From an uncultured Alphaproteobacteria bacterium (GTDB lineage Bacteria > Pseudomonadota > Alphaproteobacteria > RF32 > CAG-239), in contig CAKQSV010000001.1 in the NCBI GenBank assembly GCA_934273635.1, positions 85,393-149,392 on the forward strand: a stretch of DNA of 64,000 nucleotides, written 5' to 3'. Every line of letters starts with the position of its first letter. Position 1 is the stretch's first letter. Positions 6,354-52,764 of this stretch are shown here, one piece after another. The notes under the pieces are model-generated. The model was given only the letters and a program-made list of their open reading frames with translations. It was not told where the DNA came from and made no database searches. The position numbers were made by a program, and so were the translations under genes.

Positions 6354-6704
6354 ATGAAGTTCTTTAAGAAAAATATTTGGACAATCTGTTCATGGGTTGC
6401 CGTTTTTGCATTGGTAGCCGCAGATGCTTTTGCTGATCAGGGTTCTTCTTTGATGACCACCGCTCAGACCAAAGCTTCTAACGTGTTCCAATCAGTTAAA
6501 ACCATCACCTTTATTTTGGGTGGTTTCGGTTTAATCGGTATCGCATATCAGGCTATTATCGGTAAAGTTAAATGGTCTTGGTTTGCGGGTTTGGCCGTTG
6601 GTTTGGCTCTGTTGGCCGCTGCAGGTGCTATCGTTGAATACGCTACCGGCGCTTCTGTCAACGACAATTTTGCTGACTCGTTCTCTACCGGTGCTTCGTA
6701 CTAA
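6354..6704 (+). CDS. VirB2/TrbC-like type IV secretion pilin paralogue 1 (116 aa)
   Basis: Signal peptide MKFFKKNIWTICSWVAVFALVAADAFA, then two hydrophobic helices (ITFILGGFGLIGIAYQAIIGKVKWSWFAGLAVGLALLAAAGAIV). Size and architecture match VirB2 (compare Agrobacterium ILGPFGQSLAVLGIVAIGISWMFGRAS). Confidence 0.6.
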   Translation: MKFFKKNIWTICSWVAVFALVAADAFADQGSSLMTTAQTKASNVFQSVKTITFILGGFGLIGIAYQAIIGKVKWSWFAGLAVGLALLAAAGAIVEYATGASVNDNFADSFSTGASY

Positions 6705-6748: not shown

Positions 6749-7162
6749 ATGAAAAATTTGATTGAAAATAATTCACAACACCTTCCTTTTGCCTTTTTGA
6801 TTAAGGGAGCAAGGAAGATGTTGTGCGTAAATTTTAAGAAACTGATTGTCACGGCAGTGCTGATGTTTGTGTGTTCTTCAATTTTATTTGCAACAGATTC
6901 TTATGCACTGTTTGAAGATTTATCCAAACACGGCGGTAAAATTTTTACCGGTATGCGTGAGATTATTTATGCGGTTTCCGGTTTTGGTATTATCGCTATC
7001 GTCATCGGGGCGATTTTTGGTAATATTAACTGGAAATGGCTGACCGCTATTATTATCGGTCTGTTTGTGATTGCGGGTACGGCGACAATCATCAACTATA
7101 TGGTTGAGAGCGATGTTGTGACCCAAGATATGATTACCGACAGCCTGAAGTTTGGCGAATAG
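6749..7162 (+). CDS. VirB2/TrbC-like pilin paralogue 2 (137 aa)
   Basis: Core IIYAVSGFGIIAIVIGAIFGNINWKWLTAIIIGLFVIAG aligns with paralogue 1. There is an alternative in-frame start at 6818 (MLCVNFKK...) preceded by GGGAG. Confidence 0.55.
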   Translation: MKNLIENNSQHLPFAFLIKGARKMLCVNFKKLIVTAVLMFVCSSILFATDSYALFEDLSKHGGKIFTGMREIIYAVSGFGIIAIVIGAIFGNINWKWLTAIIIGLFVIAGTATIINYMVESDVVTQDMITDSLKFGE

Positions 7163-7220: not shown

Positions 7221-9704
7221 ATGATGAATGTTAAAAATATTGTAAAAGGTGTTTCATTCCTGTTATGCTTGGGATTTTTGGCATGTGCAACCAACGCCAT
7301 GGCGAAGAGCAGCTTTGATGACTATGAAACTCAGTACGAAGATGAGCAAGCGACCTATGGTAATTGCGAAAACGCCAAGAAATATATTGATGAAGGTAGA
7401 AAGTGTGACTCAAGCAGTAAGAAGGCAACTCTTGAAAAAGCTTGTCAGAAATATCAATCAGTCAAAGCAGAATATAAAACATGTATGAGCGGTGGCAAAT
7501 CAGAATCTAAAGCGGCTTATGACGCATTGACGACGGCAAATACTTGTGAATCTACTGCCATAAAAAACATTAAAGAGGCTTTTGCCAGCTGTAAAGCGGC
7601 TATAAAAGCATATAAAAAGGCAGACAAAGCAAATGACAAGAAGAAGGCAGCAGGTGAAGCTAATAAAGAGGCTCAAAAAGCCATGACTACTGCGAAAGCG
7701 GCTTATTATAGGGCTATAGCTGACTGTGAACAAGGGGAGACGTTTGGCGACTGCTCTAAGGCAAATGATTTATATAAAGATTATCAGAAAAAAGCCAAAG
7801 CCGCTGGTAAAACCGCTAAGGCTGCAACAAAAGCAGATACTGCAGCTGCCGCCCAAAATAAGGCTTTTCAGTCTGCTGCAAATGATTCCTGCGGCATTGG
7901 GAGACGGTATAATGCTGACACTGGCGCTTGTGAAGACATTAACCTTGACCTGAGTAGTGAAGACCCTGATATTGCAGGGGTTAAGGCGGACTCAGACGCG
8001 GCCAAAGCTGCCGCAACCGGTAGCTCATCCTTAACCTGTAGTAATGTCAGCAAAAAAGGTGAGGCTAACGGCACATTTGCAATCTTTGACTATCTTGCCT
8101 GCCGTATCACCTTGGTGGTGGCTGATGTTCGCGCTATCGTATACATCTTGGCCGGCTTTGGTATGATTGCCTTTGCTTATGGCGCAATCATCGGCAAAAT
8201 CAACTTTAAGCAGTTGGCAAACATTTTTATCGGATTGTTTATCTTGTCAATGACAACCGGATTAATTGAGGCTATTGTCTTTAATGACGGCACATCTCGC
8301 TTGACTTATCACAACTATTTACCGGACGGCAATCATGGGCAATATAGCTCTGTGAGCGCAGATTGTAGCAGTGACGCAAGCTTGTGTCCGGATGTTGAAT
8401 TGAATGGTATGAAAGCTGACGCAGACAATAGCTCTTGGAGCTTGAGCGACCTTAAAAATACTATTAAATCAGCCAAGAAAGCTGTTAAGACTGCGTCAAA
8501 TACCGTTAAGACCGTTAAAAACACAGTCGAAACTACGGTGAACGCTGCAAAGAACATCGGCAACGCCATCAAAAACGGTGGGGATATTACCGATGTGGTC
8601 AGCAACATTGCCGCCAATGTCAGCAATGTGGTTGGTACCGCGAATATGGCGGCTAACCAGTTGGCAAACAACTATGCCGACCTTGCTAATGATATTCGCG
8701 ATGCTCAGTCGACTGAGGAGCAACTTAAATATCGTGAAGAAGTCGAAAAACGCTATAACCTCTTGAAAGGTAAGTGCGATACCGGCAACTGTAGTGAGAA
8801 CGAAAAAGCCTCTTTGGCTAAAATGGCTGAGATGGTCGATGAAAACAAAACCAAAGCCGACAAATGGGTTGAGAACGACGGCAAAGGTGGCGGTTCGACT
8901 ATCTTGAGTGGTCTTGGTAAAGCAGCAAACATAGCAAGTTCAGCAAACAAAGTCACCTCAAACGTCGCTCAGGCACAAAATGACGGTTCGGCTTTGGCTG
9001 GTGGAGCATTAGGTGATGTTTTAGGCGTAGCTTTCGCCGCAGGAGAGGCTTACACCAGTGGCTCGGATGCTTATGATAAGGCTAAAAGCGATGGTTCTTT
9101 AGACTTCCGCAGCGGTCAGACCAAGAGCGCTGATGACGCCAGACATGCTCAACAAGCCGCTGAAGACGCTTGTATTAAAAAAGGCGGTAAGTTGGCTAAC
9201 GGCAAGTGCATGAGTGATAAAGGTGTTGAAATTGATATTACCACCGGCGCCCGCACTAAGACAGCGACTGACGATAAGGGTAACAAGACGACGGCTACTT
9301 CAACAACAGATAAAGCCACCGGTACAAAAACAACAACGGCTGTCGTAACCGATAAAGACGGTAAGAAGGTATCCGAGACCGTCACGGTTGAAAACAAAGA
9401 CGGCACCAAGACCGTTACGGTTAAAGAAAACGGTAAGAACAAGTCTGTAAGCTATGGCAAAGACGGCAAACTCACCTCCGTTGACGGGCAAAAGGCTGCC
9501 GACCAAAAAGCCACCTGCACCCAGCAAGGTAAAGTTTGGGACGACAAGTTGGGTTGCCGCACGCACGAAGCAGTTTGCCAAAGCGAGGGTAAAACCTATG
9601 ACAGCAATTCTAAAAAGTGCGTAGCAAAGAAAGAGGGAAAGAAAGCCGATACAAAGAAGGGAGCCGCTAAAAGTTCGGCAAAGTCAACAACCACTAAAAA
9701 ATAG
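7221..9704 (+). CDS. 827-aa secreted/membrane chimeric protein: signal peptide, Cys/Lys/Ala-rich domain, VirB2-like pilin core, then Thr/Lys/Gly/Asp-rich low-complexity tail
   Basis: GGAG sits 7 nt upstream of the ATG. Signal peptide MMNVKNIVKGVSFLLCLGFLACATNAMA. Residues ~295-350 (IVYILAGFGMIAFAYGAIIGKINFKQLANIFIGLFILSMTTGLIEAIVF) are paralogous to the two upstream pilins. The N-terminal domain is Cys-rich, with 14 Cys in residues 1-285 (two lie in the signal peptide), and the C-terminal region has a further 10 Cys. Confidence 0.6.
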   Translation: MMNVKNIVKGVSFLLCLGFLACATNAMAKSSFDDYETQYEDEQATYGNCENAKKYIDEGRKCDSSSKKATLEKACQKYQSVKAEYKTCMSGGKSESKAAYDALTTANTCESTAIKNIKEAFASCKAAIKAYKKADKANDKKKAAGEANKEAQKAMTTAKAAYYRAIADCEQGETFGDCSKANDLYKDYQKKAKAAGKTAKAATKADTAAAAQNKAFQSAANDSCGIGRRYNADTGACEDINLDLSSEDPDIAGVKADSDAAKAAATGSSSLTCSNVSKKGEANGTFAIFDYLACRITLVVADVRAIVYILAGFGMIAFAYGAIIGKINFKQLANIFIGLFILSMTTGLIEAIVFNDGTSRLTYHNYLPDGNHGQYSSVSADCSSDASLCPDVELNGMKADADNSSWSLSDLKNTIKSAKKAVKTASNTVKTVKNTVETTVNAAKNIGNAIKNGGDITDVVSNIAANVSNVVGTANMAANQLANNYADLANDIRDAQSTEEQLKYREEVEKRYNLLKGKCDTGNCSENEKASLAKMAEMVDENKTKADKWVENDGKGGGSTILSGLGKAANIASSANKVTSNVAQAQNDGSALAGGALGDVLGVAFAAGEAYTSGSDAYDKAKSDGSLDFRSGQTKSADDARHAQQAAEDACIKKGGKLANGKCMSDKGVEIDITTGARTKTATDDKGNKTTATSTTDKATGTKTTTAVVTDKDGKKVSETVTVENKDGTKTVTVKENGKNKSVSYGKDGKLTSVDGQKAADQKATCTQQGKVWDDKLGCRTHEAVCQSEGKTYDSNSKKCVAKKEGKKADTKKGAAKSSAKSTTTKK

Positions 9705-12636: not shown

Positions 12637-13689
12637 ATGACAGAAGAGCAAAGCGAACTTTGGGAGCATTTCCTGAAGCAGGTTAAAATTCTTAAATTAA
12701 AATCTATTCGCGCCTGGCACCGTTTTGACAAACAGACCGGAACCACCCGTTTTTTGAAAAAGATGGCTTTGGCTGCGGCTCTGAAAACCATTACGATGAT
12801 TATGCCCAATGCGCAGATTAGCCTGCACGCGCAAACCGTGCACAAAAAAACACCAAGCAAAACTTTGATTGCCAGCGCCTCAATCCCGAGCGCTGAAGCG
12901 TCGTATGAGGCTTTTCAGGAGTACAGCCGCGAACGGATGCCCTTGCGTCAGGCCGACTTTGCCCGCGATTTGTATGAGACCCTGCGCGAAAACGTGGAGG
13001 AAGTGCAGGACGGCGCCAAGCACGGTCGCAAGACCAAAACCCTCAAAGACCTGTTCGGCAACGATATTGACCCCAAATATTATTGCGCTATTGCCGGTTT
13101 GCGCTCGTTGGAGCAAACCATTGACAAAAAGGGGTATTATGAATATGAGTTTTTGCTCAACTGTATTCAAAATCCACACGCTTGTCTGAGTGTTATCAGC
13201 AGTTTGGAAAAAAACTTCGGCACCGGTGCCAAAACCGCCAATATTCGCAACAAACTGCGCGACGAGCTGAAGAAAAATTCAAGCTCAGTGTGCATTGCGG
13301 TAGTCAACAGCCGTCAAAACACCAGTAGCGGCAAGCATTTTGTGTTTGTGTTGCCCAACAAGGTGGTGGTTGATTCGCTGATTCATGAAACCGACACGCT
13401 CAAAGGACGCGTGGTGTCGTTTAATGTTGATAAAATCGCCAAATCCGACGACTATTTTACCGGCACCCGCAACACCGGCTATTTGTTCAACATTACCGAC
13501 CTGTCGGAAAATGATTTGATGTTGATGTTTTATAACGCGTTCACCAAGCAAAAAATGCAAAAAACAAAAACCGCCTCAAAATCTGCGGAAGTTTCGGCAG
13601 TGACGGAAAAGCCCAAAACCACTCGTCGCAAAACGGCGGTTAAGCCCGAGGGCTTGTGGCGGGAGGTCAGCTCTAAAAGCAGAGGCTAA
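12637..13689 (+). CDS. hypothetical protein (350 aa) with a Lys/Thr-rich C-terminus
   Basis: Intact ORF. An internal segment MALAAALKTITMIMPNAQISLHA looks like a signal peptide. No recognisable domain. Confidence 0.45.
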   Translation: MTEEQSELWEHFLKQVKILKLKSIRAWHRFDKQTGTTRFLKKMALAAALKTITMIMPNAQISLHAQTVHKKTPSKTLIASASIPSAEASYEAFQEYSRERMPLRQADFARDLYETLRENVEEVQDGAKHGRKTKTLKDLFGNDIDPKYYCAIAGLRSLEQTIDKKGYYEYEFLLNCIQNPHACLSVISSLEKNFGTGAKTANIRNKLRDELKKNSSSVCIAVVNSRQNTSSGKHFVFVLPNKVVVDSLIHETDTLKGRVVSFNVDKIAKSDDYFTGTRNTGYLFNITDLSENDLMLMFYNAFTKQKMQKTKTASKSAEVSAVTEKPKTTRRKTAVKPEGLWREVSSKSRG

Positions 13690-33379: not shown

Positions 33380-33511
33380 GCTAATTTTTCTGATTTTTAT
33401 AATTAAAATATGCAAAATTTTTTGCATATACCCTTGCGGATGCAAAAATCGCTCCCTATATAGCCTATTAGAAAGATTGATAAATGTTAATTTTATTAGA
33501 GGAAACAAATT

Positions 33512-35476: not shown

Positions 35477-35827
35477 TGCTTATTCAAACGCAAAAGATTA
35501 TCTTGGCAACATCAAATTTATTATTAATCTTTTAAAATACATTATTATGATTTCAAGACATTATGTTGTTTATGTTATCGGAACCTTTTTGTGTTTTCCG
35601 ATACGTTGCATTCACACTGTGATTGAGGAGGATATTAAGCCTGCGTTTAAGCGTAAGTTTAATCACCGTCCTCAGCCGAAGTTCTCTGACGGTAAGACGC
35701 AGAAACTTACCTCTCAGAAGGGTGTTAAACGTGTTTGCGGTCAGTCTCAGAAGAGTATTCGCTTTGACCACACGCACAAGCCACAAAAAGTGGTTGGCTG
35801 AGAGAGAAAAACGACATTAAGTTAAAC

Positions 35828-35882: not shown

Positions 35883-37034
35883 TTAAGCAACAGATTTGAA
35901 CAGATCTTTAACCTTGTCGACAAAGCCTTTGCTTTGCGGTTGGCACTTATTGTCTTCTTCCAGTTTTTGAAACTCCGCCAACAGTTCTTTTTGGCGAGAT
36001 GATAAATTAACCGGCGTTTCAACCATAAAGCGGACAAACAAATCGCCTTTATATTTGGAGCGGATGGTCGGCATACCCTCGCCGCCAACCTTAATTTGCT
36101 GGTTGGTCTGAGTGCCGGCGGGGATAGAAATTTCTATCGAACGGCCATCAATGCTTGGGATTGTCATTTTGCCGCCCAACGCCGCGCAGGTCATTGAAAC
36201 CGGCACTGTGGTATAAAGATTTGCCCCCTCACGAGCATAAAGTTTGTGTCCGGTGATGCTGATAAAAACATATAAATCGCCATCCTGACCACCGCGTAAA
36301 CCCGCCTCACCGGCGCCGGCAACGCGCATACGCGTGTCGTTTTCAATACCGGCGGGAATTTTGACTTTGATTTGTTTTTCACTATGGATTAAACCCTCGC
36401 CATGGCATTTTTTGCAAGCGGATTTAATAACACGTCCCTGCCCTTTACAAGTGGGGCAAGTCGTTTCAACAATAAAAAAGCCGCCTTTTTGCGAGTGAAC
36501 TTTGCCGTGTCCGTGACAGGTGGGGCAAATCGGCGCCTCTTTGCCGTCTTCGGTGCCGTAGCCGTGGCAATCTTCACAGACCTCTGAGTGTGGCACGGTG
36601 ATTTCTTTTTCAACACCGGAAAAAGCCTCTTCCAACGAAATTTCAAGGTTGTAACGCAAATCGGCGCCGTCTTGCGCCGCGGTGCGATTATAGCCTCGCT
36701 GACCACCACCCATAAACTCGGAGAAAATATCGCCAAAGATATCACTAAAACCACCGGCGCCGTTAAAGTCAAAGCCAAATCCGCCAAACGGATTGCCACC
36801 CTGCCCATTTTGAAAAGCCTGCTTGCCGTAGCGGTCATAAGCCGCGCGTTTTTGCTCGTCTTTCAAAACGTCATAAGCCTCGTTTATCTCCTTAAAACGA
36901 TTTTCAGCTTCCGGATTGTCCGGATTGCGATCCGGATGGTATTTCATCGCCTGACTACGATAAGCGCGTTTAAGTTCGTCCGAAGTTGCTGTTTTGGACA
37001 CGCCAAGAACTTCGTAATAATCCAATTCACTCAT
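35883..37034 (-). CDS. dnaJ: molecular chaperone DnaJ
   Basis: J domain with HPD, a Gly/Phe linker, and four CxxCxGxG zinc-finger repeats. Confidence 0.95.
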
Positions 37035-37171
37035 GATTACTCTACTAAAAATGTTTTTTATTAACGTATTATTTATTTAAGGCGTTTATCATCAAAAGGC
37101 AAGTAAATTGTGGTATTTTGCGGTGAAAAGCGGCAATAATTTTGTATCGGCGATTCTGTTTAGACAAAATA

Positions 37172-37200
37172 TTGACAAGTTGTCGGAAATCTGGTAAAAT
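37172..37200 (+). promoter_or_regulatory. sigma-70-like promoter for the 1272-aa ORF
   Basis: TTGACA (37172-37177), a 17-nt spacer, TAAAAT (37195-37200), then AAGGAG 8 nt before the ATG at 37241. Confidence 0.5.
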
Positions 37201-37240
37201 TGAGGTAATTTAAGGTTGTTACAAGGCAAGGAGTGTTATC

Positions 37241-40200
37241 ATGGCTGATATGAGCGATGCTGAAATGAACGAACTGTTTGAGCGTGAGTATTTGGGTAAT
37301 CCGGTTCTCAGAGCGCGCTATGACAGCTATAATGAAGAGCGAAAGGCAGAAACACGAAGAGCATGGATTGCAAGAAGAAGAGAGGGGATTGCCGAGGAAG
37401 ACGCTCGGGCTCAGGCGCAAGCTGATACCAATGCGCAAACCGAGCAAAATACCGACACCGCCACCCGTGAAGATATGCCGACCGGCGGTGACAATCAGGA
37501 AAATGTTGACAATGCTCCCGCACCGACCGAACAGCCGCGTGAAAATGCCGCCGAAACTCCGACAAGCAACTATAACTCCGATGAGTGGCAACAACTGCTC
37601 AGCGGCGAAAATACCGAGTTTTTAAGCACAGCACCTATGCAAAAAGGTATTGACCGTGAGGTGTTGCGCGGTATGAACAAACTGCCGCAGAACTTTGATT
37701 CTCTTGATTTTGAACATCAGCAATCCGCTATTAATACCGCTAAAGCCGACCTTAAACCCGAAGAAATTCAGCAGTTTAATGAAAAAGAAGTTGAGCTGAA
37801 AAAGGCTATCGCCGAACAATATCCGCCCAAACGTTTGGTTGACACCTCAAAACAGTTGGAAGAGGCCGAAAAGCACGTTCGTGACGACAATGTTAAGCAA
37901 TCTATGACCAACACCCGCGCCGCGATTATGGAGACAATGATCGGCAACATCAATCGTTTTGCCAACGGCGAGACGGTGGTTGACCAATCCAACATTGCCG
38001 ATGTTTATGACGGTTCAATGGAAATGTATCAGTACGTTGAGGAGAAAAACCCCAAAGACGAAGAGCTGAAACAAAAATTGGAAACCTGCCGCGGCAAAAT
38101 GAACGCCGAAATTGAAAAGTATGATGAGGCAAATGGTTTTCAAAGTCTTTCGCCTAAAGACGCGGCGGAAATTAATGCAACATATCTACGCGCACAAAAA
38201 CAGTGCAAAGATGATGAAAAATTCAACCCAATTAAAACAAAGAGCGATGATGGCAAACTTGTATCCACCGAAAGTTTGTGGTTAGCGTTTGAGTTTAGCG
38301 ATGAGGCTAAGCGTGAGGAGTTGATTGGCTCATTTAATGAAGCGGTCAAAGAAAAAGCCGCCAGAAGCGTTGCTGTTAGAAACAAAGGCGCCAAGGGTGA
38401 AAAGTTAGACGAAGCTCTTCAAGATGAGATTGACGTAGCGTTCAAAGAAGAATTTGAGCGTATGATTGTCACCAATGAGACGGCTAAATTTGCGGAGGCT
38501 GAAGCGCAAAAGCACCAGAAAGACCCGTCTTATGAGCCGCAACCTTATCCGGCTGACCGTGCCGGCGCCGATGTGCAAAATGCTGTTAACACAATTCTGT
38601 CCGGCACAAAATATAAGGTTGATAATAAAGCTGTTGTGACCGGTTTTGCTCATCACACCAATGAAGGTTTTGGTTACTTGAACCGCTTGGGATCTAAAAT
38701 CGGCAAAGAAACCAACGCCGTCGGGCACATGGCCGAAGGTCTCCGCAAGCTCGACAATACTTGCATTAAGCGTTTTGACCCGTATTACACTATTGCCAAA
38801 ACCCAAGCCAAAGCTATTAGAGGGAATATCGGTCGGCAGGCTCTTAATCAGCTTGCACGTTACGGCTCAAGTTTTATCCCCGGAGGCAATTTGCTTTACG
38901 CCGGTTATGTCGGCGGACAAGCGGCATGGCGTTTGGGCACAAAGTACAGACGTTTGAAAAAAGAAGCCAAAGCCAACAATCGGGCATTTAGCGGATGGAA
39001 GTTTTTGAAAGATCATGCCGGTGAAATTGCAACCAGCGCTGCGGCAACCGTTGCCGCAGGTTTGGGCGGCGGGATGGCCGCAGGCTTGCTTGGAAAAGCC
39101 TCGATGGCTATCGGCAGCGCCACCAACTTTATTAAAACTTTCAAAAGACAAAGAGAAAAAGGCGAGACCTGGAAAAAGTCTTTGGGTGTGGCGGCGTTTT
39201 CCGTTGCCTGCTCCGCCGCCTCGGCTATTGGCACAAGCTCGGCTTTGGGATATGGCATGCACGAAACCGGACTGGATGTTCAAGGTCATCATAACGAGAC
39301 GATAACCGATCATAACAGAATTGAAGAGTTGAAAAACACCGCTCCTGAAAAACTTGAGGAAATGGGTATTGTTCGCGAACATGGCGTTGACCCCAATGCT
39401 GAAGGCGCTTTCAAAGTATCTGACGGCAAAGCCGGTTTTGAAACGCGAGACTATTCTGCCGAGGAACTGAAATATGCCGAAATGCGCAATGACGGCGTTC
39501 GTTACAGCGAATATCTTGATAAACAATGGGTTCATCATGACTATCAAGACCCCAACTCATCAGACCCGTTGGCACACAGCGAAGATGCTCACCAAAACGC
39601 TATTCAGGCTCTGGACAAGCTTGCCGAAACTCACAAGGATATGAGCAGCTATGTTGACGGCAAGTTTGAATCAAACAGCGAAATGTTGCTCTATAAACTT
39701 TATCAAGCCAATGTCTTGGCGCCAAATCCCGATGCGGTTTCTGACAGTGGTCAGCCTATCGGCGAGGTTTTGAGTGCTACCGATAAAGACGGCAATGTCG
39801 TCAACTATCAAGATGTGTTCCAAAAAGCGTTGCGTGGTGAAGAGTTGACTGAAACCGATTATCAGGTTATTCATAAGGTTGAAGACCATGTCGGTGGTCA
39901 GTTAAGCGTGGATGAAAACGGCAACACCACGCTCAATGATGTGGGTAAAATTAAAGACTTTGACCACACCGGTGACGGCTCAAGACCCGTGGACTCTTAC
40001 AATAAAGATGCCGACCCCGGGTATGAGCCCAATCAACACCCCGCAGAAGACCCGATTTATGACCGTTTTGTTGAAAACAAGACTGACTATCGTGAGGTTT
40101 TGCCGTTTGTTGTGGTTCATGACAATCAGGGTGAAAATCGCTCGTTGGCTCAACGAATTGGCGCAAACCCGCATGACTTGGCGGAACAGGCTAAAAAACG

Positions 40201-41059
40201 CGTGAAAGACAAACAAAAAGACCAAGCGCCGACACCCGTTCCGGTTCCGGTTAAACAAGAAAATCAGGACAAAGTGCCGGTGGCAACTCCTGTCACAAAA
40301 CAGGAAGAAAAGTCCGGTTACGGCAAGTTGTTGGCTGATGAATACAAAATTATGTATGGTGTTGAACCGAAAGTTGTTGACAGCAAAGACCCGAGCGAAC
40401 ACCGCCAATATCAGCACTGGATTAATTATAACAACCGCGTTGATGAAGAGCGCAAAGCCAAATATCCCAATAACAACGTTGATATGTATGACTTTTTGAC
40501 GGAGCGCCGCCAAAAGCTCGACAAGACGATTGAGGACGCTAAAGCCGCTAAAATTAATGTGGCAGGCAGGTCGCTTGAGGGTTCGGAAGTGGCCAAAGAC
40601 TATGCCAAGCATCAGGATAATCCGGGGATGTCCGCCGTTATCTGCGGCGCCCGTGAAAGCCTGATGCAAAGCAATCTGACCTCGCAAAACTATAACAACA
40701 AGCTGACGCTCAGTCACTTTACGGAATATGTCGGACACTATGCGCAGTCGGATGAATTTGTGAGTGACGGCACGCGGGATATTCAGCAAAATCCGCAAAA
40801 GAATATGAAGCGTGATATTGTTGATGAAAAGACCAATCCGAACAAGTCTTATCTGGTTTTGGACTTGAACGACTATTATCTGGGCTCAAAAGACCGCAAG
40901 CCTTATGAGTGCTTTAACGTTGACCCGAAAAAGGCTGAGGGTCAGGGCGTTAAGACTGACCGTTGCACCGTGAAAGATGTTTTGAAAAAGATGAGATTTA
41001 TCAGCATGAAACATCCGAAAAATCCGTCTATGGTCCAAAAAGAGCAGAAGACGCTCTAA
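37241..41059 (+). CDS. large hydrophilic protein (1272 aa) of unknown function, with central glycine-zipper hydrophobic segments; candidate secreted effector or translocator
   Basis: No signal peptide. Residues ~545-660 (GSSFIPGGNLLYAGYVGGQAAW, IATSAAATVAAGLGGGMAAGLLGKASMAIGSATNF, LGVAAFSVACSAASAIGTSSALGYG) are flanked by charged coiled regions. Own promoter and terminator. Confidence 0.6.
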   Translation: MADMSDAEMNELFEREYLGNPVLRARYDSYNEERKAETRRAWIARRREGIAEEDARAQAQADTNAQTEQNTDTATREDMPTGGDNQENVDNAPAPTEQPRENAAETPTSNYNSDEWQQLLSGENTEFLSTAPMQKGIDREVLRGMNKLPQNFDSLDFEHQQSAINTAKADLKPEEIQQFNEKEVELKKAIAEQYPPKRLVDTSKQLEEAEKHVRDDNVKQSMTNTRAAIMETMIGNINRFANGETVVDQSNIADVYDGSMEMYQYVEEKNPKDEELKQKLETCRGKMNAEIEKYDEANGFQSLSPKDAAEINATYLRAQKQCKDDEKFNPIKTKSDDGKLVSTESLWLAFEFSDEAKREELIGSFNEAVKEKAARSVAVRNKGAKGEKLDEALQDEIDVAFKEEFERMIVTNETAKFAEAEAQKHQKDPSYEPQPYPADRAGADVQNAVNTILSGTKYKVDNKAVVTGFAHHTNEGFGYLNRLGSKIGKETNAVGHMAEGLRKLDNTCIKRFDPYYTIAKTQAKAIRGNIGRQALNQLARYGSSFIPGGNLLYAGYVGGQAAWRLGTKYRRLKKEAKANNRAFSGWKFLKDHAGEIATSAAATVAAGLGGGMAAGLLGKASMAIGSATNFIKTFKRQREKGETWKKSLGVAAFSVACSAASAIGTSSALGYGMHETGLDVQGHHNETITDHNRIEELKNTAPEKLEEMGIVREHGVDPNAEGAFKVSDGKAGFETRDYSAEELKYAEMRNDGVRYSEYLDKQWVHHDYQDPNSSDPLAHSEDAHQNAIQALDKLAETHKDMSSYVDGKFESNSEMLLYKLYQANVLAPNPDAVSDSGQPIGEVLSATDKDGNVVNYQDVFQKALRGEELTETDYQVIHKVEDHVGGQLSVDENGNTTLNDVGKIKDFDHTGDGSRPVDSYNKDADPGYEPNQHPAEDPIYDRFVENKTDYREVLPFVVVHDNQGENRSLAQRIGANPHDLAEQAKKRVKDKQKDQAPTPVPVPVKQENQDKVPVATPVTKQEEKSGYGKLLADEYKIMYGVEPKVVDSKDPSEHRQYQHWINYNNRVDEERKAKYPNNNVDMYDFLTERRQKLDKTIEDAKAAKINVAGRSLEGSEVAKDYAKHQDNPGMSAVICGARESLMQSNLTSQNYNNKLTLSHFTEYVGHYAQSDEFVSDGTRDIQQNPQKNMKRDIVDEKTNPNKSYLVLDLNDYYLGSKDRKPYECFNVDPKKAEGQGVKTDRCTVKDVLKKMRFISMKHPKNPSMVQKEQKTL

Positions 41060-41081
41060 GGCAAGGTCTTAAACAAACAAG

Positions 41082-41116
41082 AAATCCCGAAGATTTTTAC
41101 ATCTTCGGGATTTTTT
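41082..41116 (+). terminator. rho-independent terminator
   Basis: Stem aatcccgaagat / atcttcgggatt followed by TTTTTT. Confidence 0.75.
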
Positions 41117-41262
41117 AGAGATTAAAAACGGTTATTTGCCGTTAAGATTTACCATAGGAACGCTATTGCCAAACATATACTGCGGATTTATCGCTTGATA
41201 TTGCGCGAAAAATAGAATACTCTTATCTCCGTGGTTGTAACTCATTAACAAAAGGACGATTT

Positions 41263-42012
41263 ATGATGGCTATTAATATTATCATCACACTGGTTTTGCT
41301 GATTATTTTACTGGTTCTGCCGGGGTTTAGAATTGTTATGCAATATGAAAAAGGCATTGTCTTTACCCTCGGACGCTATTCCGACACCCGCGACGCCGGT
41401 TTGCGGTGGTTTATTCCTTATATTCAGACGATGGAAAAAATTGATATGCGTATTGAGACTGCCGATGTCCCCAAGCAAGAAGTTATGACCAAAGATAATA
41501 TTCCGGTCAACATCAACGCCGTGGTTTATTTTAAGGTCAAAAACCCCGAAAAAGCCGTTATTCAAATCAGCGATTATGTGTTCGCGGTGGTTCAACAGAG
41601 CCAATCGGCGCTCAAAGACGTTATCGGCACCAATGATTTGGACACCATTTTGTCTGAGCGTAAGCGCATTGGCGAAGAAATTAAAAACATTGTGGATATG
41701 ACAACCGACAAGTGGGGTATTGATATTGAGGCTATCAATATGCAAGAGATTGAGCTGCCGGAAGATATGAAACGCGCTATGGCTAAACAAGCCGAGGCCG
41801 AGCGTAATCGCCGCGCTATGATTATTGCCGCAACGGGAGAAGTCGAATCAGCCAAAAAGATGTTGGAGGCCGCCAGTACCTTAGAGAAAAGTCCGGTCAC
41901 CATGCAACTTAAAACTTTGCAGACAATTAAAGACATTTCTTCTTCACAAGCTCAGACAATTGTGTTGTTTCCGGCCGAAATAGCCAAACTGTTGGGCGAG
42001 AAAAAGAAATAA
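41263..42012 (+). CDS. SPFH/band-7 (stomatin-like) domain protein
   Basis: N-terminal TM helix plus an SPFH core (IVMQYEKGIVFTLGRY...DNIPVNINAVVYFKV). Confidence 0.8.
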   Translation: MMAINIIITLVLLIILLVLPGFRIVMQYEKGIVFTLGRYSDTRDAGLRWFIPYIQTMEKIDMRIETADVPKQEVMTKDNIPVNINAVVYFKVKNPEKAVIQISDYVFAVVQQSQSALKDVIGTNDLDTILSERKRIGEEIKNIVDMTTDKWGIDIEAINMQEIELPEDMKRAMAKQAEAERNRRAMIIAATGEVESAKKMLEAASTLEKSPVTMQLKTLQTIKDISSSQAQTIVLFPAEIAKLLGEKKK

Positions 42013-51303: not shown

Positions 51304-51477
51304 TTAGCTTATTTTACTTTGAGGGAATAGTATATCATTTTAGCAAAATCACCAAGTAATAAATGCAATAAATGCCCTTTTTTGTGGACAATTCGCCTTA
51401 AAAATCAGCCTTATTATTCTATGGACAGAATATTTATTTTATGGTATATTTGTCTAAGTTTTAAGGTTGAGGTTGAG

Positions 51478-52764
51478 ATGAAAAAAATTGTTATCGCCAG
51501 TCAGGACGGCACGCCGCCGCAGTGCAAAAAATGGGCAAAAGACGCCGTGGTTGAGTTTTTGGCGGTGTTTCCCGAATATAAAAACTCTTTTAGTATTGAA
51601 TTTAGAGACGACGCGCACGCCACGCACAAAAAAATATCGCAGGCGGAATATGACAACCTCCCCGACGACACATACAAATTGCAGTTTGTGAAAGACGATG
51701 ACGGCAACTGGCTAGTGCCTTATGAATCAATGGCGTGGTATTTGGCTCAGGCTAAAAAGCCCAACCAACGCCTTGGCAGTGACACCGTTGACCTGTCAAT
51801 TCTTAATGGTTTGAACTGCGCTTATATCAACAACAAAGCTCCTGATGAGATTATTTGCAACCTTATCGGCGACCGGTTCTCAAGTAGTTGTTACGGCTAT
51901 GGCGCAGAAGGCAAAATGATGGCGATTTCAACCTCTAACCCCGCTTGTCAGGATGAAGAATTTTTTAAGACCATTATGATGCACGAACTGGGGCATATTT
52001 TCAGAGCCACACACCGTGGCCGTGAACACACTGTTTATGACAATACTGCCGGCAACCACTGCACCAACAGCGACTGCATTATGGGCGACAGAGATTATGA
52101 CCGCCTTTCTCATGAGCGTTTGGCACGCAAAGCCCGTGGCAATCCGCCGTTTTGCAACGAGTGTATTGCCTCGATGCGCGAATATATGGAAAATATGCCG
52201 GAACTGACCAAAGAAATGGATGTTCAACAAATTTCTCAACCCAACCGTCCGGAATTTGTATCTCAATTACCGGAATTGCCACATAATGACGACAGTTGGA
52301 AAGACGGGTTTAGAGCTTTTTATCGCGACGTGTCAACTCGAGAAGGCAGTGTTTATAAAGAGACGGAAGATAAAGTCAACTATCTGGCTAAACTAGAGCG
52401 TCAAGACGGCTCTGTGCTTGAGATTGAGGCCAACAACGAATATAATGTGGCGTTGGGCGCTAAAAACAAAGACGGGCAAGATGAGATTCCGTCTTTGGAA
52501 GATATGTGCGATTTGGTTAAATTGGCGCAATCTAAGAACAGCGGTATGAATTTTGCCGAAGATAACGAGCCGGAGTTTGACGGACGGTTGCTGATTGCGT
52601 GTCTTGAGGCTAAACCACAGCCTTTGGATATGAAAAACAAGCCGGAGCTGACGCCCGAGTTTTTGAGCCAATTAACTCCCGCAACCAAAAACAAGTTACA
52701 AACTCTGACGCAAAGCGGTAATAGTTTTGCAATGATTGCGCGGCACCGAGACGGCGGACGTTAG
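51478..52764 (+). CDS. archaemetzincin-like zinc metallopeptidase with a ~170-aa C-terminal extension
   Basis: HELGHIFRATH...HCTNSDCIM...23 aa...CNEC follows the archaemetzincin pattern HExxHxxGxxH-Cx4CxM-X17-CxxC, with an insertion in the GxxH segment. No signal peptide. GAGG sits 5 nt upstream of the ATG at 51478; the ORF-track start at 51382 is a TTG. Confidence 0.5.
   Translation: MKKIVIASQDGTPPQCKKWAKDAVVEFLAVFPEYKNSFSIEFRDDAHATHKKISQAEYDNLPDDTYKLQFVKDDDGNWLVPYESMAWYLAQAKKPNQRLGSDTVDLSILNGLNCAYINNKAPDEIICNLIGDRFSSSCYGYGAEGKMMAISTSNPACQDEEFFKTIMMHELGHIFRATHRGREHTVYDNTAGNHCTNSDCIMGDRDYDRLSHERLARKARGNPPFCNECIASMREYMENMPELTKEMDVQQISQPNRPEFVSQLPELPHNDDSWKDGFRAFYRDVSTREGSVYKETEDKVNYLAKLERQDGSVLEIEANNEYNVALGAKNKDGQDEIPSLEDMCDLVKLAQSKNSGMNFAEDNEPEFDGRLLIACLEAKPQPLDMKNKPELTPEFLSQLTPATKNKLQTLTQSGNSFAMIARHRDGGR

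Follow-up and report, generated by a model that had tools for sequence, protein, structure and literature searches.

Does a giant protein without annotated relatives, encoded next to dnaJ on an ordinary stretch of bacterial chromosome, work in the cell that makes it or is it exported to another one? This question is raised by a gene for 1272 amino acids (aa) found in an uncultured alphaproteobacterium (RF32, CAG-239; GenBank assembly GCA_934273635.1, contig CAKQSV010000001.1, positions 85,393 to 149,392). The window means here the whole 64,000-nucleotide stretch that was analyzed, and all positions are counted in it. The first-pass annotation, made from the letters and their open reading frames (ORFs), had described an orphan protein with a glycine-zipper hydrophobic core and had proposed a translocated effector or a pore-former. 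According to our sequence comparisons, the giant protein is a member of an undescribed, lineage-specific family of giant modular proteins from uncultured gut and rumen Alphaproteobacteria. We tentatively propose that it is a resident, non-secreted and amphitropic hub or scaffold protein associated with the membrane, a reading that we slightly favor over export by a type IV secretion system (T4SS).

Family Membership

The protein cannot be considered an orphan: a word-indexed search of 5.8 billion proteins revealed 18 clusters that share 29-98% identity with it, and a profile derived from seven members and run against 1.84 billion cluster representatives retrieved 146 proteins at E ≤ 1e-3, of which 110 also lie at E ≤ 1e-10. 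With few exceptions these proteins are 1000-2245 aa long, and all the relatives are unannotated. Every named member is recorded as "MAG: hypothetical protein [Alphaproteobacteria bacterium]" (MAG, metagenome-assembled genome), and the sole match among GTDB species representatives is a MAG from roe-deer rumen. A second word-indexed search, using a divergent 16-sequence profile, recovered only six close proteins. No paralogue was found in the window or in the related loci, each of which carries one copy.

Library scans assigned the protein to nothing known. Pfam gave no match for the window protein and none above threshold for five giant distant members, whereas NCBIfam gave only sub-threshold compositional matches (P13 porin and ABZJ_00895, both in the hydrophobic region named H below). 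PHROG and PADLOC scans gave no relevant match, and searches of PDB sequences with the whole protein or with profiles of its modules (N1N2, M and C, described below) gave no relative. The earlier remark that no catalytic motif could be recognized was thus borne out, these scans having found neither such a motif nor a curated domain.

The family was defined by: (i) the hallmark N-[IVA]-A-D-x-Y-D-G, followed by a YDxxNxL motif and then by two Pro/Gly-turn hairpins with polybasic loops, and (ii) a length of at least ~1000 aa, an acidic N-terminal peptide and a basic C-terminal tail. All these features of the newly defined N1-N2-H core family were found in the window protein. The hallmark was also recovered in nine of the 14 checked distant members whose N domains had been missed by the module hidden Markov models (HMMs).

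Modular Architecture

Local module HMMs revealed a common plan, in which a variable N-terminal extension (facultative) precedes N1, N2 and H, which are followed by M and a Pro-rich linker (both facultative) and by zero to four copies of C. The confidence of the AlphaFold2 (AF2) models is given as predicted local distance difference test (pLDDT) and predicted template modeling score (pTM), and substitution rates as nonsynonymous (dN) and synonymous (dS). The window protein is organized as follows:

37241-37306 (+): acidic N-terminal peptide, aa 1-22, of the MAxISxxELxxWFxExYL type, conserved in relatives
37307-37555 (+): hypervariable acidic linker of low confidence, aa 23-105, with column identity of 0.1-0.3 and, against a 92%-identical relative, dN 0.28 and dS 1.0
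37556-38212 (+): N1, aa 106-324, helical, with SDEW, YPPK, the hallmark VVDQSNIADVYDG and YDExNGF; pLDDT 70-90
38267-38800 (+): N2, aa 343-520, helical, with GYLNRLG and DxTCIKRFDP, delimited by alignment, HMM and AF2 model
38801-39304 (+): H, aa 521-688, read from the alignment as a pair of helix-Pro/Gly turn-helix hairpins with two polybasic loops and, after them, a fifth helix rich in Ala/Ser/Gly; dN/dS 0.02-0.04
39308-40120 (+): M, aa 690-960, mixed alpha/beta, with SNSEMLLYKLYQANVLAP and KVEDHVGGQ; pLDDT up to 83 in parts; dN/dS 0.025-0.05
40121-40297 (+): Pro/Lys/Glu-rich spacer, aa 961-1019, read from the sequence; pLDDT < 35
40298-40936 (+): C, aa 1020-1232, compact helical domain with a beta-hairpin; mean AF2 pLDDT 83.5, pTM 0.82; up to four copies in relatives
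40937-41056 (+): basic tail, aa 1233-1272, with a short amphipathic helix of the KMxxIxxxNPKN type; net charge +6 in the last 25 aa

A 1172-aa AF2 model, which begins at aa 101 and was obtained from a seven-sequence alignment, shows helical N1-N2 at pLDDT 70-90 and is otherwise of low confidence (pLDDT < 50 at its start, in the linker). The C module and the tail were modeled from a 27-sequence alignment. The Foldseek comparison that the first-pass annotation had recommended was carried out on both models and found no PDB neighbor at E < 0.1, N1-N2 and C being confidently modeled and H with low confidence. For C, the best PDB match has an E of 0.11 and the TM-scores reach at most 0.28. A run of matches to ribosomal uS7 (E 0.1-2, TM 0.2-0.28) was considered and rejected as insignificant; the two share a topology of three helices, a beta-hairpin and then further helices. 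Against BFVD, for which only the full-length model was used, nothing was found below E 0.02. The C module contains many invariant polar residues and, as modeled, is a confidently folding domain without a solved relative, which recommends it for structure determination. In one relative, four C modules are found with PTPKP-type linkers between them, and the linkers of relatives are longer than the spacer of the window protein.

Three distant members (P0017, P0018 and P0046, found in L006 and L007) carry N-terminal extensions with about three tandem units of ~90 aa (..VPDLSQLILHMRGRNDSMTVSILQERLDDIRANRPND..) that are absent from the window protein. In locus L009 (GCA_948487605.1, 10001-13002), the orthologue is called as two genes of 564 and 414 aa that are split within H, probably by a frameshift or an assembly error, its cluster-mate being 1000 aa long. 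In the metagenome loci L015 (10450-12444) and L016 (10625-12334), a second long ORF (664 and 569 aa, respectively) lies 3' of the giant ORF in the same orientation, only 3-5 nt from it and ahead of dnaK; it could be the other part of a split gene, a frameshift or a read-through.

Hydrophobic Region and Termini

H is the only hydrophobic part of every family member. In the window protein, it spans ~aa 540-675 and is Gly/Ala/Ser-rich, so that the central hydrophobic stretch previously pointed out does exist; however, its hydrophobicity is marginal. The maximum KD19 is 1.48 (also the family median, compared to 0.9 outside H). Apparent free energies of membrane insertion (ΔGapp) were computed by a re-implemented Hessa scan that was validated only on controls from this window: the known membrane proteins of the window give values from -3.8 to +1.8 kcal/mol and no soluble protein falls below +2.0. 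The best segments of the window protein reach +1.91 (aa 596-620) and +2.40 kcal/mol (aa 648-671), the former being close to the best segment of the soluble DnaK (+2.0 kcal/mol). A ΔGapp below 1.5 kcal/mol in a window of 18-35 aa is the published cut-off for secreted transmembrane effectors (TMEs; PMC12981334), which no segment of the window protein reaches. Among 61 family representatives, the median minimum is +1.6 kcal/mol; 46% fall below 1.5 and 11% below 0 kcal/mol. The dnaJ-linked subfamily, to be described below, is the least hydrophobic, and distant subfamilies carry two segments of 28-34 aa at -0.9 to +1.1 kcal/mol.

The H turns are formed by I-P-G-G-N at aa 546-550 and again, according to the alignment, at ~aa 607-611. 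The two helix-turn-helix units are conserved in the alignment, as are the polybasic loops between them, the AF2 pLDDT of the region being below 50. H is net basic within an otherwise acidic protein, and its many invariant residues favor specific packing over a generic anchor. The proposed glycine zipper did not withstand comparison with relatives: the GxxxGxxxG of the window protein (G607/G611/G615) lies on the second turn and is not conserved, relatives having a P-G-G-N turn at this position, and only G610, G618 and G625 are near-invariant glycines in that stretch. A conserved GxxxGxxxG on one face of a transmembrane helix, as in glycine-zipper channels, was therefore not found. As judged from its sequence, the giant protein probably associates with a membrane, and H is the evident candidate for this contact.

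Both termini are charged. The first 25 aa are acidic, with a mean net charge of -1.85 in 110 members and a recurring peptide (MAxFTxEQLEEI..SEEY..YL or MAxISxxELxxWFxExYL), and no N-terminal hydrophobic segment was found in the window protein, in agreement with the reported lack of a signal peptide. By contrast, the last 25 aa are basic: their mean net charge is +3.4 in the family (n = 113), as against -0.8 per 25 aa in the complete proteins and +0.47 in background ORFs, and it is at least +3 in 67% of the members versus 29% of background ORFs. With +6, the window protein lies above the family mean. Nine distant members end in an amphipathic helix, FFxxLF..K(R)G..K, that resembles the tail of MinD, whose ..GFLKRLFGG is an amphipathic membrane-targeting sequence. 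This likeness (..FFxxLFxK(R)GxDxK in full) is a resemblance only, and the motif is absent from the window protein.

Expression Signals and Genomic Context

The giant ORF is a real gene with strong expression signals. The features of the gene and of its intergenic region are the following:

37241-41059 (+): coding sequence, 1272 aa and stop, read as an ORF; its start matches, in the alignment, the MA(D/E)I(S/T) with which homologues begin, and its dN/dS is 0.145
37172-37200 (+): sigma-70 promoter TTGACA-17 nt-TAAAAT with a TG extended -10, 11 matches out of 12, at a position kept in relatives
37161-37168 (+): TAGACAAA box abutting the -35 hexamer upstream, found beside TTGAC in the window and in L001, L002, L004 and L007
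37228-37233 (+): ribosome-binding site (RBS) AAGGAG, 7 nt 5' of the ATG, read from the sequence
41079-41119 (+): intrinsic terminator with a hairpin at 41079-41116 (stem of 16 bp) and a U run after it; folding energy -22.1 kcal/mol, z = -6.0 compared to shuffled sequences
37075-37103 (-): sigma-32-like promoter of the divergent dnaJ, CTTG-N17-CCTTAAAT, in a block conserved across the five intergenic regions compared (5/5)

The first-pass annotation had correctly recognized the near-consensus promoter, the good RBS and the gene's own terminator, and the boundaries that it gave (37172-41116) run from the start of the promoter to the end of the terminator hairpin. It was also right that the gene is monocistronic, since dnaJ (35883-37034 on the opposite strand) is divergent upstream and the next gene, which encodes an SPFH/Band-7 protein (41263-42012, + strand), has its own RBS. 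The promoter, RBS and terminator of this 3.8-kb gene are among the strongest of the window, a large investment for a small genome. The TAGACAAA box was considered as a general promoter element and rejected, as it is not enriched in the window (three matches versus 1.9 expected).

The dnaJ-BIG intergenic region (BIG designates the 1272-aa window gene and its orthologues) contains two phylogenetic footprints, which correspond to the sigma-32-like promoter of dnaJ and to the sigma-70 promoter of the giant gene. The latter is strong, apparently constitutive and conserved across genera. The dnaK promoter (~33433-33461, + strand; CTTG-N17-CCCTATAT) has the same form as that of dnaJ. As read from these sequences, the giant gene interrupts in this clade what is usually a dnaK-dnaJ operon, dnaK and dnaJ each having a sigma-32-type promoter.

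Of the 14 loci, 11 (the window, L001, L002, L004, L007, L009, L011, L012, L014, L015 and L016) have the giant gene and dnaJ as a divergent pair. In four of these (L007, L014, L015 and L016), BIG is antisense to dnaK and dnaJ and separates them; in three others (the window, L004 and L012), BIG and dnaJ are together inverted with respect to dnaK. The pairing persists even where BIG shares only 27% identity and DnaJ 62%. Three distant members are found elsewhere, two of them (P0092 and P0110) sharing a different synteny and the third being P0056. The dnaK-BIG-dnaJ arrangement offers an easy synteny marker of the clade. Otherwise, the window is ordinary chromosome, with accA/accD, rmuC, dnaK, dnaJ, corC, mdoGH, gyrB and radA, and also mlaE, parB, mnmG, rpsA, lolA and a porin gene. 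The GC content, GC content at third codon positions (GC3) and codon adaptation index (CAI) of the giant gene are typical of the window, and these native values speak against a recent horizontal transfer.

Several other observations concern this neighborhood. An 84-aa ORF (35547-35801, + strand) lies between dnaK and dnaJ; it is conserved in L012, where it is also 84 aa long (dN/dS 0.17), and has no family assignment. In L004 and L005, the gene called in this position has 76 aa. Functional coupling of the giant gene to the SPFH gene directly 3' of it was considered and rejected: the 92%-identical L012 lacks the SPFH gene and has corC directly next there, a difference at the strain level that goes back to an insertion or a deletion. 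Two more ORFs, 350 and 460 aa long (12637-13689 and 51382-52764, both on the + strand) have no Pfam match. Finally, the cumulative GC skew climbs to ~44 kb and then drops, gene orientation flips there from mostly + to mostly -, and gyrB, parB, a parA-like gene and mnmG lie just past this turn.

Evolutionary Tempo

Compared to its 92%-identical relative in L012, the giant gene has a dN of 0.041, whereas those of twelve neighbors are 0.002-0.010, and its overall dN/dS is 0.145 (0.01-0.06 in the neighbors). This divergence is unevenly distributed. H and M are under housekeeping-like purifying selection (omega of 0.02-0.05, the range found across codons 506-905), whereas codons 1-105 (37241-37555), which include the linker, are hypervariable (dN 0.28, dS 1.0). 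By contrast, codons 1006-1105 (40256-40555) show a dS of only 0.018, compared to 0.28 gene-wide, and an omega of 0.69. Such mosaic divergence suggests recombination between strains.

A Resident Scaffold or an Exported Protein?

If the giant protein is a resident scaffold, which we hold to be possible rather than probable, its two H hairpins would enter the inner membrane of the same cell only as far as the cytoplasmic leaflet, with an N-in/C-in topology, and the polybasic loops of H would hold anionic lipids. Both large arms would thus be cytoplasmic, and the terminal peptides together with N1-N2, M and C may recruit partners or self-associate. The link with dnaJ might, speculatively, reflect either shared regulation or the chaperoning need of a huge, partly disordered and hairpin-bearing protein. 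The gene behaves as part of the core genome, with a conserved dnaJ pair, one copy per locus and native GC content and codon usage, and this fits a resident scaffold. The conserved sigma-70 promoter, the constraint on H and M, the invariant residues of H and its marginal ΔGapp also count for it. Furthermore, the MinD-like tail of nine distant members suggests contact with the cytoplasmic face of the membrane at the C terminus.

Other observations weigh against this proposal: (i) BIG evolves rapidly, being 36-52% identical where DnaK is 94% and DnaJ 81% identical, (ii) its N terminus is hypervariable, its modules vary in copy number and its low-complexity PT-rich linkers are variable, (iii) the window protein ends in KMRFISMKHPKNPSMVQKEQKTL and lacks the MinD-like tail, (iv) the AF2 model of H is of low confidence, (v) VirB2 pilin paralogues are encoded in the same window, and (vi) the basic C-terminal tail, family-wide in otherwise acidic proteins, equally fits a VirB/D4-type signal. 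A hypervariable N terminus and a variation in module copy number and in low-complexity linkers are common in secreted or surface proteins.

The first alternative, the one put forward in the first-pass annotation, is in our view slightly less likely: the giant protein would be a T4SS substrate, kept soluble in the cytoplasm by the only moderate hydrophobicity of its hairpins, whose basic tail would be read by the coupling protein and whose hairpins would, after export, insert in a host or target membrane as an effector or pore-former. The pilin array that had been noticed ~27 kb away is indeed present and ends 27.5 kb upstream of the giant gene:

6354-6704 and 6749-7162: TrbC/VirB2 pilin ORFs of 116 and 137 aa, both above the Pfam cut-off
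7221-9704: 827-aa ORF with an internal VirB2-like hydrophobic hairpin, without Pfam match

The 827-aa ORF has a signal-peptide-like N terminus and Cys- and Ala/Lys-rich regions. The array is preceded by a porin and a response regulator gene and followed by PfkB and MFS genes, no other T4SS gene being nearby.

Besides this array of TrbC/VirB2 paralogues, export is supported by the lack of a signal peptide, by the family-wide basic tail (the +6 of the window protein agrees with the positively charged, hydrophilic C-terminal 20-30 residues that form the secretion signal of VirB/D4 effectors), by fast evolution with a hypervariable N terminus and module shuffling, by the 46% of family members that have a segment below 1.5 kcal/mol, and by an intermediate hydrophobicity and predicted short-turn hairpins like those of TMEs secreted by type III secretion systems (T3SSs) and T4SSs (PMC6110835; PMC12981334). 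However, the window protein itself, at +1.9 kcal/mol, lies on the other side of this cut-off. VirB3-B11 and VirD4, among them the ATPases and the coupling protein of a T4SS, were found neither among the larger window ORFs scanned against Pfam nor in the gene tables of 17 related loci, the other large ORFs of the window being housekeeping genes. No effector or eukaryote-like domain (BID, Ank, Fic or similar) was detected in the window protein with Pfam and NCBIfam or in five distant members with Pfam. The position in the dnaK-dnaJ core locus, the strong constitutive-type promoter and the conservation of H, far more constrained in sequence than a generic membrane anchor, also argue against export. 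Furthermore, these bacteria are not known as intracellular, and the window encodes a normal diderm envelope and transporters. A literature search on RF32-type gut Alphaproteobacteria and T4SSs found nothing relevant. It had been stated beforehand that presence with conserved synteny in free-living relatives lacking secretion systems would speak against secretion; this was borne out in part, since the pairing with dnaJ holds in most loci and down to the identity given above. Secretion is possible but weakened by this synteny, and nothing specifically supports a pore-former.

A broader version of this alternative, which seems unlikely to us, is that these proteins form a new class of secreted giant hairpin proteins in the core genome of the clade, delivered by a T4SS or otherwise exported in a non-classical manner and inserting into membranes. 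Their sub-threshold hydrophobicity and the adjacent DnaK/DnaJ would keep them export-competent, and the novel-fold C, repeated up to four times, would be part of the exported protein.

We regard it as quite improbable that the protein spans the envelope or is exposed at the surface, N-in/C-out, as a tether or adhesin like TonB, FimV or PodJ. In that case, H would cross the inner membrane with an odd number of helices and place the Pro-rich spacer, M and C in the periplasm or at the surface. The PTPKP-type linkers between repeated C modules in relatives, the possible reading of H as five helices and a quickly evolving C-terminal half with variable module content would agree with it. However, the segments are too weakly hydrophobic for translocation of the ~600-aa C-terminal half by Sec/YidC, no peptidoglycan-binding, LysM, OmpA or TPR domain was found in any member tested, there are no paired cysteines, and the MinD-like C-terminal helix of a subset argues for a cytoplasmic C terminus.

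Lastly, it is highly improbable, and effectively refuted by context, that the protein is what remains of a mobile element, whether the tape-measure or ejection protein of a phage or a pore-forming toxin of the colicin type. Such an origin would explain its length, its helices and its central hydrophobic stretch rich in Gly and Ala, as well as the tape-measure proteins that are its best, insignificant BFVD Foldseek matches (E 0.02, TM 0.07). However, the neighbors are dnaJ, dnaK, SPFH and corC genes, with no phage, immunity or lysis gene nearby, PHROG and PADLOC give no match, the C module (the sole part tested) has no relative in IMG/VR, the base composition is native and the chromosomal position is conserved across genera.

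Comparison with Known Systems

HubP/FimV and PodJ/TipN are large, very acidic and fast-evolving membrane-anchored hubs with variable repeats and low-complexity linkers, and serve as recruitment platforms. A resident scaffold with the size, acidity, tempo and variable modules of the present family would resemble HubP/FimV in its mode of action. HubP, FimV and PodJ have a clear transmembrane helix and periplasmic LysM, TPR or peptidoglycan-binding domains. By contrast, no segment of the window protein has a ΔGapp below 1.5 kcal/mol, neither it nor five distant members carry any of these domains, and there is no sequence relationship between the window protein and HubP/FimV or PodJ/TipN.

Colicin pore domains, Bcl-2 proteins and the diphtheria toxin T domain are amphitropic and are made soluble, with Ala/Gly-rich, moderately hydrophobic helix-turn-helix hairpins among amphipathic helices, and the window protein resembles them in these respects. 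The window protein differs from them by its far larger size and its polybasic loops, and shows neither fold similarity nor an immunity gene. No match to a colicin/Bcl-2 pore fold was found in PDB by Foldseek at E < 0.1 with either model, that of the H region being of low confidence. As for tape-measure proteins, neither a relevant PHROG match nor a tail-gene neighborhood was found.

A precedent for a resident scaffold is the growth pole ring protein GPR (Atu1348) of Agrobacterium tumefaciens, which has homologues in Rhizobiales, a 2115-aa helical scaffold with a two-transmembrane hairpin anchor, a cytoplasmic bulk, a Pro-rich region and an essential C terminus; its two N-terminal transmembrane helices are bona fide and ~75% of the protein matches the apolipoprotein family PF01442 of Pfam (PMC8262873). 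GPR and the window protein are both giant, lineage-specific, mostly alpha-helical and alphaproteobacterial, with Pro-rich low complexity toward the C terminus and a C terminus that probably matters for function, and a short hairpin-type attachment may leave the bulk of both cytoplasmic. However, Pfam recognizes nothing in the window protein, whose hydrophobic region is marginal and located centrally, neither PF01442 repeats nor two N-terminal transmembrane helices were found in it, its N1, N2, M and C modules are unrelated to GPR, and no homology with GPR was detected.

With the TMEs of T4SSs and T3SSs known from Legionella, Coxiella and Brucella (PMC12981334, PMC6110835), the window protein shares the lack of a signal peptide and a hydrophobicity that stays close to, or under, the threshold at which proteins are targeted to the inner membrane. 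The predicted hairpins with very short turns, the long hydrophilic flanks on either side and a basic C-terminal tail resembling an export signal are further similarities. It differs from them by its ΔGapp, its core locus and a five-module plan of 1272 aa that has no described effector counterpart, and no homology to any effector family was found. Overall, the window protein lies outside every known family to which it was compared and would belong, whether scaffold or hairpin effector, to an unrelated new family doing a known kind of job.

Biological Significance

The guts of humans and ruminants are widely inhabited by Alphaproteobacteria of this clade, but to our knowledge none of them has ever been grown in culture, and almost nothing is known of their biology. 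The interest of the giant protein lies in the family itself, giant and dark, in its confidently modeled C domain without solved neighbor, and in the fact that the dnaK-dnaJ locus of uncultured gut bacteria carries an insertion that is both unusual and conserved. A dnaJ-paired family that is unrelated to Pfam, NCBIfam, PHROG, PADLOC and PDB entries probably marks a lineage-defining cell-biological function. If the protein is exported, it would point to a contact-dependent lifestyle of uncultured gut Alphaproteobacteria and, should there be a whole secreted class, to contact-dependent interactions of these abundant bacteria with host, protist or bacterial cells. If it is instead a resident scaffold, as we slightly favor, it would add an unrelated family to the few giant membrane organizers known in bacteria.

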